From: an uncultured Verrucomicrobiae bacterium | GTDB lineage: Bacteria; Verrucomicrobiota; Verrucomicrobiia; Limisphaerales; Palsa-1400 | Direction of reading: 5' to 3' | DNA length: 64,000 bases | Assembly (NCBI GenBank): GCA_963764165.1 | Contig: CAVXRD010000002.1 | Location: 3,296,001-3,360,000, forward strand | Part shown: one piece after another, positions 31,131 to 38,668 of the stretch | Numbering within the stretch: the stretch's first letter is position 1 | Layout: each line of letters begins with the position of its first letter | The notes under the pieces: generated by a model | The model's database searches: none | Told to the model about the DNA's origin: nothing | What the model saw: the letters and a program-made list of their open reading frames with translations, nothing else | Program-made: the position numbers and the translations under genes

Positions 31131-31412
31131 GATAGGAGGCGCCGCTGCGGATTCAACGCCGGATTGCCGAAAACCTGTTTTGGAGGGTGCAAACTGGGCG
31201 CAAAAAAACGTAGGTGAAATAGGGTGCAATAGAGTGCAACGACCCTGAGGCAAAATCGGCCCCGCCAGCCCCGGTTGGACCTCCGTCCTTGGTCCTAGTC
31301 TCTCAGTCTGGTCATAAACAGCCATGGGCGCACTTTGGCACGGATGTCGCCGCATTGAAAACCTACCAGAGTGTTTTCGGCACGATTTTTCGGAAAGAAA
31401 TGCTGATGATTG

Positions 31413-31743
31413 AATCTGGAACGACCGAACGCAGGAAAAAAGACCGAAGTCGGTTTCAAACGCATCGTCAATTCGTATCCGGTGCTGACCCGTCATGCTG
31501 GCCTCTTTTCCTGATTTCCAGACTTCCAGATCATATAGTCTCAAAAATGCCGCAACACCCTGCATCATTGAATATCTACGAGATAAAGTGCCAATAATGG
31601 TCGTGATGAGAATAGTGTCGATGGCGAGTCGATGCGGGACACCACAAAACAGGGCGCCTCTTTTCCTGATTTCGTGAGTTCCAGATGATATAATCTCAGA
31701 AAACCCGCTACACCCGCTACATTGTTGATTATCAACAAGATAA
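31413..31743. repeat. imperfect inverted repeat plus ~85-bp direct duplication at the left edge of the accessory region
   Basis: ATCTGGAA..CAGGAAAA (31413-31440) is inverted to TTTTCCTG..TTCCAGAT (31506-31531); 31501-31586 resembles 31656-31743. Confidence 0.6.
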
Positions 31744-31786
31744 ACCGCTACACTGGGCGCTACAGAGCCGCTACACGCCCGCTACA
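31706..31786 (+). repeat. six CGCTACA heptamers around a palindrome (iteron-like)
   Basis: Copies at 31706, 31715, 31746, 31758, 31769, 31780; TTGTTGAT-T-ATCAACAA at 31722-31738. Confidence 0.75.
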
Positions 31787-31892
31787 TTTCGGGCGAAGGG
31801 ATCCAGCTTCAACAAATTGTATGCCGGGTCCCCCGACCCGGCGTCCAGAGCGATCGCAGAGCCAGGAAAAGATGGAGTGACGTTCCGAACTC

Positions 31893-32078
31893 ATGCACCA
31901 CTTTGAAACGCAATTGCACAAACGCGAAGGCAAAGCCGTCTCCAGCTTTCAACGCACACCGCAGCCACCGAGTTCGATTTCGCTGAACAAACGCTCAATG
32001 ACCCATACAATTTCGATTTCCTCACCATCAGCAGCCACGCTCACGGGCGCGACTTCAAACAGGGCCTGCTCGGCCATG
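31893..32078 (+). pseudogene. internal fragment of a YhcG/DUF1016 PDDEXK-nuclease family gene, frameshifted
   Basis: MHHFETQLHKREGKAVSSFQRT, then in a shifted frame DFAEQTLNDPYNFDFLT....RDFKQGLL, matching the family's QGKAxxNF...LKDPYxFDFL motif. Confidence 0.75.
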
Positions 32079-32125
32079 GGATTCAACGCGCTTGCGCAAT
32101 TTAAGAAACTAAGGACAATACGGTC

Positions 32126-32335
32126 ATGAAGAATTACACCGCCGTGGTGGAACGCGACCCGGAGACGGGATTTCTTGTGGGCTATGTGCCAGGGTTCCCT
32201 GGCGCTCATTCTCAGGCGGAGTCGCTCGACGAACTCCAAGCCAACCTTCAGGAAGTGATTGGCATGCTGCTGGAGGACGGGGAACCGCTCTTGGAAGCCG
32301 AATTTGTCGGCACGCAGAGCATCGTTGTGGCCTGA
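32126..32335 (+). CDS. hicB: short HicB-family antitoxin
   Basis: YTAVVERDPETGFLVGYVPGFPGAHSQAESLDELQANLQEVI. Confidence 0.88.
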   Translation: MKNYTAVVERDPETGFLVGYVPGFPGAHSQAESLDELQANLQEVIGMLLEDGEPLLEAEFVGTQSIVVA

Positions 32336-32337
32336 CT

Positions 32338-32562
32338 ATGGGCTCCGTGCCGGTTCTCAAGCCCATCGAGGTATGCCGCTTGCTCGAAAGGCTGGGATTC
32401 GCCTCTGTGCGCCAGCGCGGTTCGCATATCCAGTATCGCCACGCCGACGGGCGTGGCACAACCGTGCCAATGCACAAAGGCCGTGATATTGCCCCATCCC
32501 TGTTACGGAAGATCGCCCGCGACATTGGTTTGACGGTCGAGGAACTTTTGCTGAACCGTTGA
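32338..32562 (+). CDS. hicA: HicA-family mRNA interferase
   Basis: LERLGFASVRQRGSHIQYRH.DGR.TTVPMH.GRDI...LLRKI. Confidence 0.92.
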   Translation: MGSVPVLKPIEVCRLLERLGFASVRQRGSHIQYRHADGRGTTVPMHKGRDIAPSLLRKIARDIGLTVEELLLNR

Positions 32563-33268
32563 TCGCGCCCACTCATACTTTCACCTCCACGGTAACGCGG
32601 AGCCGCCACAAAACCATCCTCCAAACGACGCTAGGGTGCCTATCTCCATAGTAGCTTCGCTTCGGATGAGAAAGACTTCGCCGAACCCAAATATTGCCCT
32701 GTCCCAATGCCCCGCGTGAAAGCACTCAGCCTACAGACTCAAGCTTCAATAAATTGTAGGCCGGCCCTCCCCCGACGCAGCGTCCAGGGGGATCGCAAAG
32801 TCAGCGGCAGATGGAGTCACGTTTCGAACCGTTTGCGAAAAACAAAAAGTGCAAAAAGTGACACAGGAATACAACCGTGCCAATGCACAAAGGCCGTGAT
32901 ATTGCCCCATCGCTGTTGCGGAAGATCGCCCGCGACATTGGTATGACGGTCGAGGAACTTCTGTTGAACCGTTGATCGCGCCCACTCATACTTTTTGCCT
33001 CGACGGCAATGTGGAGCCGTCACAAAACCACCCCCAACACCCGACGGGTGATGGCACGCAGCCTACACGTTCCAGCTTCAACAAATTGTAGGCCGGGTCC
33101 CCCGCCCCGGCGTCCAGCGGAATCGCAGAGTCAGCGACTGACGGATCCACGTGTCGAACATTTGCGAAAAAGAAAAAGTGCAAAAAAGTGGGAACGCGAA
33201 TGGCGCTTACGCAAAGTTGGCCAGAAAGACTTGAAACTTGCATGGGTGGATGCGATTGTTTGCATTGT

Positions 33269-33691
33269 ATGTCAGCGATGACTAAAGATGAGAGCGTCAC
33301 TCTCCGTTTGACAAAACCTGAGAAGGCGGATTTGGAAGCGGCCGCGACTTTGACGGGCCAACCGCCGGGTACTTTGGCGGCTATTTACGTCAAAGAGGGT
33401 GTAAAACGTTCGCGTTTCCCCGTTGTCGAGTTTCGCGACGGCGCTCCGGGCCGGGTGGCTTACGTAACCGGCACGAGGTGGCCGGTCTGGATGGTCGTGG
33501 ATTTGGTCAAAGATCTGGGCGGGAACACGACGAAGGCGGCTCAGCGAATGGACAAACCCGAACCGGTCGTCAAGATGGCACTGGCCTACGCGGAGGCCTA
33601 CTCGGAGGAGATCGCCGCGAGCCTGACACTGCACAAGCACCGGGACTTCGAGGGGCTTAAAGCTGTTTCGCCCAACCTTGAGAAGGTGTGA
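33269..33691 (+). CDS. DUF433-type antitoxin with N-terminal RHH-like segment
   Basis: VTLRL N-terminus; FRDGAPGRVAYVTGTRWPVWMVV...ALAYAEAYSEEI; GTGA overlap with a PIN-like gene. Confidence 0.8.
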   Translation: MSAMTKDESVTLRLTKPEKADLEAAATLTGQPPGTLAAIYVKEGVKRSRFPVVEFRDGAPGRVAYVTGTRWPVWMVVDLVKDLGGNTTKAAQRMDKPEPVVKMALAYAEAYSEEIAASLTLHKHRDFEGLKAVSPNLEKV

Positions 33692-34041
33692 GGCTGCTGC
33701 TGGACGAGCACATCCCTCGCGAAGCAGCCGAGGCGCTCCAAAGAAAGTTTCCGGCATTGGAGGCGGTTTCCATTTACGATACGTCCTGGCGGGGGCTGCC
33801 AGACCCGCCGCTGCTCGAAACGCTTGATCGCGAAGGCTGGATCCTTGTCAGCCGCGATGTGAATACGATCCCGGAATTCGTCAAGGCTCGTTTGGCGGCA
33901 GGTTTCACTCATGGCGGAGTGATTTACGCCGACAGCAAGCGACTCCGCCAATCGGATGTGCGCGGCCTGATTCGGAAGCTCATCGCCTTCGTCGAAAAAC
34001 ACGCAGATGAAGATTGGACCTGTCGCGAGGGCTGGCTTTAG
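33688..34041 (+). CDS. DUF5615 PIN-like toxin
   Basis: MRLLLDEHI, GLPDPPLL, ILVSRD, HGGVI. Confidence 0.85.
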   Translation: MRLLLDEHIPREAAEALQRKFPALEAVSIYDTSWRGLPDPPLLETLDREGWILVSRDVNTIPEFVKARLAAGFTHGGVIYADSKRLRQSDVRGLIRKLIAFVEKHADEDWTCREGWL

Positions 34042-34620
34042 GTAGGTTCAGGCAGGATATTGCCCATCGCTGTTACGGAAGATCGCCCGCGACATTGGTT
34101 TGAAGGTCGAGGAACTTTCGCTGAATCGTTGATCGAGCCCGCTCATTCTTTCACCTCGCCGACAACGCGGAGCCATCACAAAACCACCCGCCAAAAATAA
34201 CGGTAGGGTGAGGCTCAGCCGAACCCAAATATGCCATGCCCCAACGCCTGCCGCGCGAGGGCACTCAGCCTACGGGCTCCAGCCTCAACAAATTGTAGGC
34301 CGGGTCCCCCGACCCGGCGTTCAGGGGAATCACAGAGTCAGCGGCGGATGGAGTCATGTATCGAACCATTTGCAAAAAGCGAGTGACACCTGCCCCCCAA
34401 AACAGAGCGCGAGCGAAATAACCACTTGGGGGGCGAATGTTAATGCAGCATTCCATTTGGCACATAAGCCGCTTGAACATCGACACCTCGGGCATCGCAA
34501 TAGTCGCTATCATTCGTCTCATTTTATTACCGAATTAAATCCAGTTTCATTTCACCAACAGCAACCTCCGTCGAGCCGCAGAGCGTAAAGTTTTCCTGAC
34601 ACCAAGTCTGGTTATTTGAT

Positions 34621-35077
34621 TCATCGATCACGCCCTGCGACAAATGCAAAATATCCGATATAATTCGTTCGTTTATCAAAGAAGATTGATAACGATCCGT
34701 TGCCTTCGGACGCCTCAGAAACACCAACAACCTCACATTGATCCGCCGCCGATAATCTTTCCAAAATGTCCGTTGGGCGGGCTCGTACGTTACCGCTTAC
34801 GGTTGCGAAAATCGGTTGCAAGGGTCTGTAACGAATCAATTTCGGCCTGCCTTAGAAAATGTCTTTCGTTCAGTTTCCACTGCTGCAACTGCCAGTGGCC
34901 CATTTTCCCATACATTGCAACAAGTTTTTGAGCCACGTCCTCCTGAGAGGAATTTAGGGGAACGTCATTTAACACGTTTACGACATTTCTCACGCTAGGC
35001 ATGCATCCACCTGCTGTTCCAGACAGCAAGACTACAATCAGAAGTTTTCTTAACGCGGTTCGTATCGTAGCGTACAT
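34621..35077 (-). pseudogene. putative immunity-type lipoprotein, possibly frameshifted
   Basis: ATG 35077 lies 4 nt after the upstream stop; signal/lipobox-like LLIVVLLSGTAGGC; stops at 34790 with a plausible continuation in the 34621-34839 frame; AT-rich. Confidence 0.4.
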
Positions 35078-35081
35078 AAAT

Positions 35082-35591
35082 CTAGTGCTGCAAAAAGGCT
35101 CCAGCGGCCCCATCCCAAGTACTACCAAATCCCGGTTGCGGATGTCGGGCCCCATTCCAAGTAGACGTGACATCCAAATTCGGGTTTGAAAATAGCAACC
35201 ACTGTGTCGCCCTGGAAATCGTGCTCGTAAACTCACCAAAGAACCAATAACTTGGGCTCAAATTAAGACTCATATTGGCAACATTATTATAGTATCCCAC
35301 TGCCGGCCCCCGTGCCGAGAAATTCTGATACACGCCGATACCGTAATACCCTAAATACCTGGAGCCCTCCAAACCCCTAAGGACGCCCCCACTATGATCC
35401 AGTTGATCGATGGTACTGTCTCCATAAACTATATCAGCGACTTGGGAAGCATATTCTAACCCCGGCGCCGTGTCTCCCAAAAACGCCTCTGCAAATACCT
35501 CCATAATACTGGCACCTACATACGGCGCCGAAACCTGATCGGACAATCCCAGCGCATTTCCGGCGCGGTTATCAAGCGCGAGTGTCAGTCC
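35082..35591 (-). pseudogene. 5'-truncated fragment, possibly a polymorphic-toxin (Rhs-like) C-terminal domain
   Basis: Frame is open from inside the repeat motif (35591) with no ATG at its 5' end; DHSGG resembles a hydrolase nucleophile elbow; low GC; followed by a lipoprotein-like gene. Confidence 0.4.
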
Positions 35592-35925
35592 TCACCTTTT
35601 GCACTTTTTGCTTTTCTGCTCTTATCCGTTGTCCGGTGGCCCGGGAACCCTAGTCCAAACGCCCGCCGGTGGATGGCTAACCGCTACCGCGAAATCTGCT
35701 GGACCTCGCCCACCGACGGCACCATCTGCAGGACAATGACATCTCGAGGGCATTCGGTGCGGAGGGTCGTGGGCTGCAAGTTTGTGAAGGTGGTCAAATC
35801 GAGCACGACACGGTGTTCCTTTTGGCTCGGCTGGAACAATGCCGGATCCCTGCCGACGGCGGTGACCACAACTTCCTCAGGACTGAGACTGAACGAATGG
35901 GTCTCCCCTTCGGCGAATTTTGTCG
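35581..35925 (-). pseudogene. diverged duplicate of the ybbR 3' half and its downstream flank
   Basis: Aligns by eye to 36729-37386 once the MITE is removed; encodes VGRDPALFQPSQKE.RVVLDLTTFTNLQPTTL...VQQISR with an in-frame 6-bp deletion. Confidence 0.9.
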
Positions 35926-36050
35926 ATTCGGTGTTAGACCTTCACTTTTTGCACTTTTGTTTTTCGCAAAGATTCGACACATGGCTCCAATTGCCCATTT
36001 CCTCGATGGCGCGTTGAATCCAGAAAGCTTTATATGACAGCGCATCCAAT

Positions 36051-36467
36051 TCAATGCAGCAGTTCCACCAGACCCGTTTCATCCGCAAAGCTTTTTGCCA
36101 GCGGTTCATCGAGAGTTGCCAGACTGAATCGATGTTGCCGGGCGAGCGCAACAAGATAGCGGTCGGTGATCTGATTTGCGCCAGCCATCAGTTCCGTTCG
36201 CACGGCGCGGTCGGTGCAGCTCAAGTCGTCGGAAATGAATTCATGGCGCGGGTCACTGATGAATTGGCGGAGAACGCCAAACGCCAGTTCGGGCGTCAAG
36301 CCGTAACCGAGCAGGGGATGCGAGGAGACGCGCGCAAAACCAAGCTGGACAACCGGGCAGGTCGCAAAGGCGGAAACGCCCCTGAACCACGAACGGGCCC
36401 GGGAGTGATGCTCGTGATTTTCCCAAAGCAACGCCATGAGCAAATTGACATCAAGCAATCGGGTCAC
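36051..36467 (-). CDS. vapC: VapC-type PIN domain toxin
   Basis: LLDVNLLMAL, TCPVVQLGFARV, QITDRYLVALA, LATLD. Confidence 0.9.
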   Translation of the reverse strand: MTRLLDVNLLMALLWENHEHHSRARSWFRGVSAFATCPVVQLGFARVSSHPLLGYGLTPELAFGVLRQFISDPRHEFISDDLSCTDRAVRTELMAGANQITDRYLVALARQHRFSLATLDEPLAKSFADETGLVELLH

Positions 36468-36673
36468 GGGGTCCGGCTTTCAATCTCGTGAACAAGTTGC
36501 GAAGTGATGGTTCGGCCGTCGGCGCGGATGACGGGCAAACCGTCCCCTTCGGTGCCAACGGAAAAATGGTGGCGCGTCATTGAACTGCCGTTTTCTGCGA
36601 TAAACTGCGCGACTCGCGCCTGTTCGTTCGCGGACAATTCTTTGATTCGCTCAATGATTTCAACGGCACTCAT
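36464..36673 (-). CDS. putative antitoxin of the PIN toxin
   Basis: 69 aa, 4-nt overlap with vapC; DGLPVI...TITSQLV resembles VapB C-termini. Confidence 0.7.
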   Translation of the reverse strand: MSAVEIIERIKELSANEQARVAQFIAENGSSMTRHHFSVGTEGDGLPVIRADGRTITSQLVHEIESRTP

Positions 36674-36800
36674 GGGTTAATTGTCCGGAAAAATTCATTT
36701 TTGGCAAGCGCATTGCCCTTCGCACGCAAGTGTCGGCCATTACTTTTTGCACTTTTGCTTTCCTGCTCTTATCCGTCGTCCGGTGACCCGGGAACCCTAG

Positions 36801-37104
36801 TGTAGTGTCTCTTAAATAACTGGAGATTCGTTGCGCCGCCTTTGGCCTGTGGCTAGCAGCCCGCCTGGGGCGGGCAGCGCATCTCTGTTCTGACTCGACG
36901 AAGGAGCATCCCCTCATGGGGCTGTGACTGAGGAGCAACGACGCCACAGGCCAAAGGCAGCGCAACCCGCAGGGCGGCAGGTCTTTTTGACGCAGGCCAC
37001 GTTGCTCGCTCCTCACAGATCCTTTGGGATATGCTCGTCGTTCGCGCCTTGCCTGCGTCAAAAATCCCTTGCCGCGAATCTCCAGCTATTTAAGAGACAC
37101 TACA
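36801..37104. mobile_element. MITE 1 (304 bp), CTAG target duplication
   Basis: 30-bp terminal IR TGTAGTGTCTCTTAAATA(A/G)CTGGAGATTCG (29/30); CTAG at 36797 and 37105; empty site at 35650. Confidence 0.92.
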
Positions 37105-37138
37105 CTAGCGCAAACGCCCGCCGGTGGATGGCCATCCG

Positions 37139-37525
37139 CTACCGCGAAATCTGCTGGACCTCAACCACCGACGGCACCATTTGCAAGACAATGACATCTC
37201 GAGGGCATTCGGCGCGGAGGCGAAGGGTCGTGGGCTGCAAGTTCGTGAAGGTTGTCAAATCGAGCACGACACGGACTTCTTTTTGGCTCGGCTGGAACAA
37301 CGCCGGATCCCTGCCGACAACAGTGACGACAACTTCCTCGGGACTGAAACTAAACGAGCGAGTCTCGCCTTCGGCGAATTTTGTCGTGATGGGCACGCGA
37401 ATGTAGGCGGGCGTGAGCGAGTTAGACTCGTCGTGGATGCTGTAATGAATCAACATCCAGATCACTGTCGCCAGCGTGATCGAGAACAGCTTCAGCCAAA
37501 AATTGCGGAGAATCAGGTCGCGCAT
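37139..37525 (-). CDS. ybbR: short YbbR/CdaR-like protein
   Basis: LRNFWLKLFSITLATVIW N-terminus, PEEVVVTVVG; immediately downstream of dacA. Confidence 0.75.
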   Translation of the reverse strand: MRDLILRNFWLKLFSITLATVIWMLIHYSIHDESNSLTPAYIRVPITTKFAEGETRSFSFSPEEVVVTVVGRDPALFQPSQKEVRVVLDLTTFTNLQPTTLRLRAECPRDVIVLQMVPSVVEVQQISR

Positions 37526-37534
37526 AGCAGCGAG

Positions 37535-37804
37535 TACTGTGACAAAGAAATTTCGACACGCGCGTTGCGCCGATTTTGGCTTGGGGCAAGGCGCGAGGAG
37601 CGAGCATACCCTTCATGGGTCTGTGAGCGACGAGCAACGCGGCCCCAAGCCAAAATCGGCGCAACCCTCCGGGCGGCAGGTCTTTTTGGGCCAGACTTCG
37701 TTGCTCGCTCCGTGCAGATCCATGAAGGATATGCCCGTCGCTCGCGCCTCGTCTGGCCCAAAAATCCCTTGCCGCGCATGTATCGAAATTTCTTTGTCAC
37801 AGTA
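37535..37804. mobile_element. MITE 2 (270 bp)
   Basis: Perfect 22-bp terminal IR TACTGTGACAAAGAAATTTCGA; same internal architecture as MITE 1; abuts the dacA stop codon. Confidence 0.85.
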
Positions 37805-38668
37805 CTAAATTTTCTGCCCGGGAGAGGCGAGGGCGTGATTCTCCTTCGGCGCGGCTTTGTCCCTTGGGCGGAACAGGCGCAAAATTCCGTGCGACTTGCT
37901 TGGTTTCACGAGCACGGAAGTCAGGAAGGCGCGCAATTGCTCCGCCGAGATGCCGCGCTGCAACTGTCCTTTGTATGCGTAGGAAATCGATCCCGTTTCC
38001 TCCGAAACGACCACCACCACGGCGTCTGTTTCTTCGGACAATCCAATCGCGGCCCGGTGCCGCGTGCCAAGCGAGGCGTTCAAATCCTGCCGCTGCGTCA
38101 GGGGGAAAATGCAGGCGGCGAAGGCAATTCGATCCCCTTTCAGAATCACGCCGCCATCGTGGATCGCGTTGTTCGGAAAGAAAATGGCTTCCAGCATTTC
38201 GGGCGTTGCTTCGCAATCGACGGGCAGGCCGGATTCGGTGGCTTCCTGCAAATTGATCGTTTGCTCGATGGCCATAAGGGCGCCGATGCGGACTTCCGCC
38301 AGGCGCTCGGATGTTTGGATGATGACTTCAATGTTCTCGCGCGCTTCATGGCTGGTGGCGAAGAGCGGATGTGTTCCTAGCTCCGCGAGAATGCGGCGCA
38401 GCTCAGGTTGGAAAATAATGAGAATCGCCACCGCCGCAAACGCGACGAAGGAGCGGATGAGCCAGCTCAAAACCTCCAGCTTCAAAAAATAGGCGACGAC
38501 AGTGAGGCTCAGCACGAGCAGGACGAACCCGTAAACCACCGGCGCGCCGCGCGTTCCGCGAATGAACTTCAAGCTGAAGTAAATGCCGACCGAAAGAATG
38601 ATGACCTCAAGCGCCGGCCGCCAGCCGCGCTGAAGTGTCTCAGTCAGGAATGTGATTACTTCCGGCAT
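37805..38668 (-). CDS. dacA: membrane diadenylate cyclase CdaA/DacA
   Basis: Three N-terminal TM helices, IFQPELRRIL, HDGG, GTRHRAAIG, VVSEETG. Confidence 0.95.
   Translation of the reverse strand: MPEVITFLTETLQRGWRPALEVIILSVGIYFSLKFIRGTRGAPVVYGFVLLVLSLTVVAYFLKLEVLSWLIRSFVAFAAVAILIIFQPELRRILAELGTHPLFATSHEARENIEVIIQTSERLAEVRIGALMAIEQTINLQEATESGLPVDCEATPEMLEAIFFPNNAIHDGGVILKGDRIAFAACIFPLTQRQDLNASLGTRHRAAIGLSEETDAVVVVVSEETGSISYAYKGQLQRGISAEQLRAFLTSVLVKPSKSHGILRLFRPRDKAAPKENHALASPGQKI

Follow-up and report, generated by a model that had tools for sequence, protein, structure and literature searches.

Toxin–antitoxin and Rhs-tip genes arrayed on TIRtron ends in a Verrucomicrobiae genome, with junctions at a fixed distance beyond the terminal repeat

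Introduction

How does a bacterial chromosome come to carry two stacks of small toxin genes that face one another and restart, repeatedly, just past the same short motif? This question is raised by a cassette array at 31803-37386 of a 64,000-nucleotide stretch of DNA (the window; contig CAVXRD010000002.1 of assembly GCA_963764165.1, positions 3,296,001 to 3,360,000) from an uncultured Verrucomicrobiae bacterium. A first-pass annotation had described a plus-strand arm with a hicBA toxin–antitoxin (TA) pair and a DUF433/DUF5615 pair, and a minus-strand arm with a vapBC pair, a truncated open reading frame (ORF) and a ybbR-like gene. Every part on that list was recovered at its given position, the 16-mer motif was found 4 times in the window with at most 2 mismatches (0.04 expected), two further degenerate copies can be recognized by eye (33174, with one extra A, and 34371), and a repeat finder picks up the repeat families of both arms. 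The region had also been described as free of integrase and transposase genes. Indeed, no recombinase gene is encoded there, and no integron integrase either (tyrosine-recombinase matches elsewhere in the genome number 22, all types counted together), but the motif and the leader that precedes it are themselves the coding 3′ end of a transposase gene.

The motif is the end of a TIRtron

We regard it as nearly certain that the motif belongs to a TIRtron, of which it forms the terminal inverted repeat (TIR) and the final codons; this element is a Y1/HUH transposase gene of the TIRYT type (subclass 2.1). The motif has a source gene in the same genome and is thus not an orphan: its 13-mer core has 27 matches genome-wide, and at C4:237.8-242.5 kb three tandem Y1 transposase genes have it at either end, inverted on the left and as coding sequence (KSAKSED-stop) on the right. 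The GGAGxCAyGTxTCGAA leader encodes the WSHVSN of the transposase C-terminus (WSHVSN...KSAKSE). The C4 protein matches Y1_Tnp, and its predicted structure (predicted local distance difference test score, pLDDT, 85) best matches Escherichia coli TnpAREP (4er8; Z 15.7, root-mean-square deviation (rmsd) 2.5, 158 aligned), which puts the earlier proposal of a trans-acting HUH/RAYT-type enzyme in the right family (RAYT, tyrosine transposase associated with REPs; REP, repetitive extragenic palindrome). Model residues 238-318 align to DnaA domain IV with middling scores (Z 6.9-7.8, rmsd 2.8-3.4, 72-78 residues), and Pfam helix-turn-helix profiles gave no match to the C-terminal domain at E 0.05.

Relatives of the transposase were detected in 37 of the 41 genomes searched. 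Among the best 80 named loci, mostly from Verrucomicrobia, NHFH is present in 76 and YVHLNP in all 80, and a TIR pair (at least 18 of 23 matches) was found at 64, as well as at the three C4 copies; Y1_Tnp was found in all 76 aligned proteins. The Y1 core, the NH[YF]H and Y[IV]HLNP motifs, the DnaA-IV-like domain and the TIRs together identify the element as a TIRtron of subclass 2.1, as published (Di Nocera et al. 2013, PMC3733652; Quentin et al. 2018, PMC6006769, motifs in Table 1; see also RAYT group 1 in Bertels et al. 2017, PMC5581495). Many relatives' repeats end in TGACCCC (inward GGGGTCAG), of which GTGTCAG in this genome is a one-mismatch variant. That the motif is a known kind of end, the TIR of a TIRtron (PMC3733652), agrees with part of what the first-pass annotation had named as telling against its own reading.

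The repeat folds no better than shuffled sequences in 7 of 8 cases (z +0.4 to -0.9; -2.3 in the eighth), so that folding does not support hairpin recognition of the repeat. The three C4 TIRtrons (L004:3800-8500) are separated by single lower-GC modules resembling toxin-tip, immunity and RHS fragments, and between copies 1 and 2 there are 21 synonymous and 16 non-synonymous differences. A second TIRYT subfamily is represented by 3′ halves only (C2:138545, C4:165344 and C4:166648), two of them in tandem and two with common downstream sequence.

A fixed junction with one-sided duplications

The junction is located 5 nt past TGACAC rather than at the 16-mer itself. We scanned 143 ends from 62 related loci, which are kin and partly from one genome, so that counts overstate independence (L108 and L146 were excluded as mis-anchored, as were ends at locus edges, and ends less than 120 bp apart were merged). 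Exact duplications of 5-60 bp on the inner side end at TGAC[AC]C+5 at 19 of the 143 ends, compared to 3 at +4, 11 at +6 and none from -12 to +3, against a background of 26 in 7150. When lengths up to 200 bp are allowed, 20 duplications end at +5 (5-144 bp), with 0 nt of microhomology in 17 and 1 nt in 3. These occur at both element ends (10 right and 5 left among own ends), while outer-side tandem duplications stay at background level (0-1 per offset). Replication slippage was rejected as their source because the duplications lack microhomology.

Longer copies are found in the same relatives: 144 bp at 100% identity beginning precisely at +5 (L093), a 502-bp copy, 95% identical, that follows two short duplications (L104), one of 372 bp at 99.7% identity located at a left end that has a 117-bp insert (L101), one of 267 bp at 89%, taken from a source 2.4 kb away (L105), and one of 224 bp whose start is not at a repeat (L158). 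Within this genome, short duplications were found at 6 of 39 ends, allowing at most 2 extra bases. Among the window's copies, that of the ybbR-like gene begins at +5 and that of hicA at +5 or +6. The truncated ORF also begins at +5; it is 55% identical to residues 399-565 of P0003 (a 565-aa protein with an Rhs core) and is the C-terminal tip of an Rhs protein. Judged from the sequence, the nick would have fallen after 32869 at the left-arm end unit E1 (Table 1) and after 35926 at the right-arm transposase remnant, and two of the three long copies in the window start at such a presumed nick. The claim that new DNA enters at a fixed point 3′ of the motif, with upstream DNA regenerated downstream, holds for the +5 junctions but not for the third copy, the 3′ side of vapBC or the joints of the yhcG-like fragment.

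Three further observations concern these ends. At L105:7870-11228, an integron integrase lies 1.1 kb from the left end of a TIRtron, and the 267 bp copied directly after the right-end nick come from its 5′ part. At L107:5354-5447, a left end abuts a decayed copy of its own right end; duplication of the whole element, or a circle, would be expected to leave such a head-to-tail joint. Finally, an IS4-family insertion sequence (IS) of about 1.86 kb (NF033592 above cut-off) follows TGAC[AC]C directly within TIRtron repeats, about 10 bp of the repeat being present twice (L093:8072-9936, L124, L127, L140 and L112). Its first bases are present at 8 of the 143 ends of relatives, the full 1.86-kb element at 4, and it may target TIRtron repeats.

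Origin of the long copies

The three long copies in the window (316, 323 and 345 bp) share 87, 86 and 90% of aligned bases with their sources and carry private indels; misassembly is unlikely because the copies have diverged. The hicA copy at 32870 is 95% identical in its hicA part (4 synonymous changes, 1 non-synonymous) and 85% in the end unit. The ybbR-like copy differs from the resident gene by 15 synonymous and 7 non-synonymous changes, of which 9 and 4, respectively, are private to the copy, where neutral decay expects 24-29% synonymous (p 0.0007-0.003). Because of this synonymous excess, the ybbR-like copy is likely a displaced allele rather than a fresh local duplicate, and later replacement of the resident allele would give a similar picture.

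A second unit made of gene end, repeat, vapBC, remnant and repeat is present 2.3 Mb away, at C2:1043285-1044473, with the vapBC copy (C2:1043285-1044139) at 96.5% identity. Compared to the window, this unit has about 78% identity immediately upstream of the repeat, then shows 2 mismatches in 565 bp, 8 in the following 170 bp, and about 80% identity in the remnant. Its copy of the ybbR-like gene end carries 20 synonymous to 16 non-synonymous changes and starts at a joint without a repeat. Taken together, the identity step and the substitution pattern of the ybbR-like copy suggest that alleles of other strains took part in the array. Displacement of an older allele would fit the ybbR-like window copy and, weakly, the hicA copy; the long copies at L104, L105 and L158 fit a local copy decaying while selection on the source was kept (p 0.26-0.7), making a foreign allele unnecessary. 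No sister strain was present among 40 genomes searched (closest YbbR-like protein 58% identical), and relatives' YbbR loci (24 short and two of 16 kb, none reaching cstA) showed no repeat behind the gene and one pattern match inside cdaA.

Cargo and layout of ends across the genome

A weight matrix for ends returned 32 sites of at least 17 bits, 22 of which had served for training, compared to 1.0 per shuffled genome (2 shuffles). With 9 degenerate ends added by hand, the genome holds 41 ends in 16 clusters. Counting TA loci through five TA families, we found one within 1 kb of 6 of the 16 end clusters versus 3 of 154 control repeat clusters (1/58, 1/82 and 1/14 for the individual families), and the enrichment persists without the window (5/15 versus 3/154, p 1e-4). 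The zone of 1 kb around the ends, 0.85% of the genome, takes in 9 of the 56 TA loci. Other neighbors include DUF4062, DUF4132, surface proteins and many ORFs without a family (from 59 ORFs hand-picked out of 133 listed, plus two window ORFs). Outermost ends are convergent in 7 of 8 clusters with both orientations (p 0.035; 0.06 without the window), which indicates that the convergent arms of the window reflect the usual layout in this genome.

Cassettes of the same types exist in other genera, where vapBC is 90-92% identical, the DUF433/DUF5615 pair 88% identical at the nucleotide level, and hicB-hicA pairs 71-82%, compared to 37-53% for the YbbR-like proteins of those genera. The high identity of the 88-92% cassettes relative to YbbR indicates that the vapBC and DUF433/DUF5615 pairs move horizontally. 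In genomes G018 and G013, a 103-bp vapC tail is followed by an end of another TIRtron subfamily, an arrangement that recurs at 4 of 8 such loci. The clearest cassette-like case among the loci is L114:9009-13499, where single genes (SMI1/KNR4 and others, of immunity type) are located between back-to-back repeat pairs of about 100 bp, with one intact TIRtron.

Breakpoints at the nick fall inside genes in about 4-5 of 13 flank matches examined in relatives (frames judged by eye), and near gene ends in the others. Clean, IS-style interruption of a gene was seen in none of 13 informative cases, none being colinear, a test of low power that started from 60 elements, 20 with matches on both flanks, 7 of these being one locus twice. 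Reverse-transcribed cargo was dropped as an explanation, as the conserved stretches of cassettes reach 30-50 bp upstream of start codons, over what we read as promoter-like sequence.

A proposed mechanism and its alternatives

Nicking and phosphotyrosine chemistry are established for HUH enzymes. Starting from direct observations, namely the identity of the motif, the fixed +5 junction, the one-sided duplications without microhomology and the enrichment of cargo, we consider it probable, if far from settled, that the array was built by a nick at TGACAC+5, nick-primed copying and re-joining of upstream DNA, and joining of TA and Rhs-tip DNA at the same nick. Specifically, the Y1 enzyme would nick the strand reading into the repeat, five bases beyond TGACAC, and remain on the 5′ end, while the free outside 3′-OH would prime displacement synthesis inward. 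The extended 3′ end would then attack the phosphotyrosine and be re-joined after 5 to about 500 nt, so that upstream DNA is duplicated. The same intermediate would accept a foreign 3′-OH and put incoming DNA at +5, its own break falling anywhere, as in the Rhs tip and the few gene-internal breakpoints; in this reading the enzyme itself would capture cargo. By a second route, donor DNA of a close relative could be anchored in a shared upstream gene by host recombination, with its far end set by the nick, displacing the old gene end downstream as suggested for the ybbR-like copy. Far ends without a repeat may have been resolved by host illegitimate recombination or deletion, and the two arms would be two such stacks facing one another. 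The nick–prime–rejoin scheme, in which a second cut frees a 3′-OH, is part of the amplification model for the sister enzyme TnpAREP (PMC3333891 Fig. 7B) and is carried over here to TIRYT by analogy.

Several results weigh against this proposal. All three cognate genes of this genome are damaged (NYFH, frameshifts, a deletion), with no intact cognate enzyme found in the genome, and its remaining Y1_Tnp matches belong to fragments or to short proteins that are of other types. NYFH, carried by the full-length C4 copy, was seen in none of the 80 relatives, and this copy is likely inactive. Since none intact turned up, we take the array to be a likely fossil. No repeat lies at four of the window's joints (the 5′ side of the third copy, the 3′ side of vapBC, and both yhcG joints), and end unit E2 is followed by an IS4-like end. 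A long copy of its own flank follows only 2 of 39 ends of this genome, both in the window; in relatives, repeated sequence after the nick is in weak excess (13/143 ends versus 10/286 random places, simple repeat runs included), and the loci scanned are kin. Of the 56 TA loci, 47 lie away from any end, and in other genera a clear repeat was seen close to the border of these cassettes at only 1 of 12 loci. Lastly, the repeat barely folds, although the enzyme that would recognize it is a single-strand one.

Could host recombination have done this alone? Homology-facilitated illegitimate recombination, with the donor anchored in a shared upstream gene and the repeats as passengers, is published for displacement in Vibrio type VI secretion system (T6SS) and Rhs arrays (PMC5361080), and matches the synonymous to non-synonymous ratios of the ybbR-like copy (15:7; private changes 9:4), the C2 copy (20:16) and the hicA copy (4:1), as well as the start of the third hicA copy and of the C2 copy at joints without a repeat. 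Yet it does not predict that two of three long copies and the Rhs tip begin exactly at +5, nor perfect 5-144 bp duplications at +5 without microhomology, and the long copies at L104, L105 and L158 fit local decay, so that we find this explanation unlikely. We give a rather low probability to the idea that the enzyme excises single-strand circles, by a loose second cut up to +5, which re-insert at any repeat and travel between loci or cells. Both the TnpAREP model (PMC3333891 Fig. 7A) and IS91 (PMC13181058) include circles, which would suit the unit shared with the locus 2.3 Mb away, with its 2 mismatches in 565 bp past the repeat versus about 22% divergence just ahead of it, and the vapC tail joined to a TIRtron end at several G018 and G013 loci. 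However, duplication lengths are continuous from 5 bp up while circles of 5-12 nt are implausible, no common motif was noticed by eye at the variable 5′ starts, and ordinary replacement of an allele up to the point where homology stops would equally give the identity step at the repeat.

An explanation without any capture is that TIRtrons are ordinary IS-like elements piling up in tolerant regions, with orphan ends created by deletion and TA loci persisting because they are addictive. The most IS-like groups include RAYT group 1 (PMC5581495), mini-elements with an internal deletion exist in this genome (C2:2346369-2346555 and C3:181900-182087), and most TA loci, like the cassettes elsewhere, lack nearby ends; but the three control repeat families are seldom beside TA loci, no clean interruption was seen among the 13 informative cases, albeit at low power, and gene-internal breakpoints are located at the nick, which together make a mere pile-up improbable. 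Arrays rich in TA genes are typical of integrons, and an integron integrase does lie beside one related TIRtron (L105). Pairs of attC cores number 0 in 31701-37500 versus 0.9 expected in shuffles, by a simple core-motif pattern rather than IntegronFinder, consistent with the initial view that the array is unlike integron attC arrays. An assembler would not create copies 86-90% identical with private indels and a private miniature inverted-repeat transposable element (MITE), and the same architecture is present in independent assemblies. An integron cassette cluster or an assembly artefact is thus scarcely credible here.

Relation to known systems

The element class is known, and the cut-site footprint, one-sided duplications and cargo stacking on it are new as far as our literature search shows. 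As in the published TIRtrons, a Y1 gene of about 310 aa lies between TIRs that overlap its 3′ end (PMC3733652, PMC6006769), with NH[YF]H and Y[IV]HLNP motifs, a DnaA-IV-like C-terminal domain, dispersed solo, dimeric and clustered repeats, and a terminus near the GGGGWSAS consensus; the repeat of this genome differs in having GTGTCAG instead of GGGGTCAG. According to PMC6006769, about 15% of strains carry Y1 proteins of subclass 2.1. A substrate, a role, a cut site, one-sided duplications, cargo arrays or their stacking were not found described in the available literature on TIRtrons and subclass 2.1, with subscription journals and supplements little covered. The nearest published account is a preprint on prochlorosin clusters (Laurenceau et al., bioRxiv 10.1101/2020.03.09.984088), which likewise places subclass 2.1 C-terminal fragments among accessory genes and proposed a diversifying role, a causal claim later softened; unlike here, its authors saw no inverted repeats or cut site.

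REPtrons (TnpAREP with REP/BIME; Ton-Hoang et al. 2012, PMC3333891) share the 4er8 fold, a proposed amplification by nicking, priming from the 3′-OH and attack upon the tyrosine-bound 5′ end that fits the duplications and, in some E. coli strains, a hicAB pair in place of the REPtron (PMC3333891, available text). In REPtrons, however, the repeat is a stable hairpin that comes with a guide tetranucleotide and is cut at CT to either side, whereas the present repeat barely folds, has one fixed junction, and is accompanied by genes that are duplicated or joined; stable REP hairpins with a guide tetranucleotide are absent at the C4 genes, which the GTAG hairpin does not flank. IS91 and ISCR, also HUH systems with one fixed and one variable end that co-mobilize adjacent DNA, have unlike ori and ter ends without inverted repeats and a tetranucleotide target, according to the accessible part of PMC13181058; here, both ends are inverted copies, both with duplications, and new DNA sits at the element's own end. 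Sequential displacement in T6SS/Rhs arrays (Kirchberger et al. 2017, PMC5361080) similarly brings in a new module with its gene end, pushes the old end downstream and carries toxin-tip cargo, but its far joint is illegitimate and no enzyme is implicated in the available account, whereas the joint here is often at a fixed site of a transposase repeat.

The footprint names a site and strand that are open to oligonucleotide tests. If the enzyme does join foreign DNA at +5, accessory-gene arrays would have a way to form other than by integrons, and homology-anchored gene displacement would gain the far joint that it lacks. The footprint also offers an explanation for a class of orphan gene ends and short stutters that annotation takes for noise. 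A broader generalization, that TIRtrons provide integron-like gene capture without a tyrosine recombinase, the Y1 enzyme ligating incoming DNA at a fixed nick five bases outside its own repeat and solo repeats serving as entry points that stack TA, Rhs-tip and immunity genes in Verrucomicrobia and beyond, is possible but doubtful.

Features of the array

Pfam matches uphold the HicBA, DUF5615 and PIN assignments of the initial annotation (Table 1), and the remaining names are of mixed standing: yhcG has a weak YhcG_C match, DUF433 derives from the source names of homologues, the gene itself having no Pfam match, and ybbR reflects position behind cdaA alone, again without a Pfam match. Rfam gave two chance-level matches only, both under gathering scores.

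Table 1. Features of the array and its borders, in window coordinates
Feature	Coordinates	Strand	Remark
Truncated end unit: GTAG-type hairpin and first codons of transposase C-terminal remnant	31802..31890	+	terminal repeat cut off
Frameshifted yhcG-like fragment	31893..32077	+	Pfam YhcG_C E 0.002, weak, below cut-off
hicB-hicA TA pair	32126..32562	+	HicB, HicA by Pfam
End unit E1 with hairpin, C-terminal codons of the transposase (GRWSHVSN..KSAKSD), a terminal repeat in shortened form and a 5-nt tail	32739..32869	+	
Copied 3′ end of hicA with flank and end unit E2	32870..33197	+	starts at presumed nick
Remnant of IS4-family element end	33198..33209	+	likely
DUF433-like gene and DUF5615 (PIN-like) gene	33278..34041	+	DUF5615 by Pfam
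Third copy: hicA 3′ end, flank, degenerate end E3	34056..34394	+	5′ junction without motif
Inter-arm stretch	34395..35081	.	GC 46% (lower), no family matched
Rhs-type polymorphic toxin, C-terminal tip, 5′-truncated	35082..35576	-	starts at presumed nick
Copy of 3′ part of cdaR/ybbR-like gene, flank, consensus-like terminal repeat (35577-35612)	35577..35925	-	
Transposase C-terminal remnant (WIQ..MGNWSHVSNL), terminal repeat, 5-nt tail	35926..36022	-	
vapBC-type pair	36051..36673	-	PIN by Pfam
Variant terminal repeat ahead of vapBC, with 5-nt tail	36725..36761	-	
MITE, 312 bp, 34-bp inverted repeats	36797..37108	.	CTAG at both borders; unrelated to array
Host gene behind cdaA (cdaR/ybbR-like)	37139..37525	-	right-arm anchor

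The third hicA copy begins directly after the DUF5615 stop. On its upstream side, the truncated end unit abuts an unrelated high-copy repeat (31164-31790), whose family, made of iterated CCGCTACA and GGGTGCAA units with 82-102 matches per segment, also adjoins three other end clusters. The MITE lies in the ybbR-like original, while the copy of that gene lacks it; 98% identical copies are present at C2:2138476 and C2:2836286, and with a related MITE at 37533-37806 the cdaR/ybbR-like gene has one on each side. Each left-arm unit carries a GTAG-type REP-like hairpin (32760-32785, 33088-33112 and 34295-34320) upstream of the transposase remnant, and it is fused in the same way at C1:315-318 kb and C2:941 kb.

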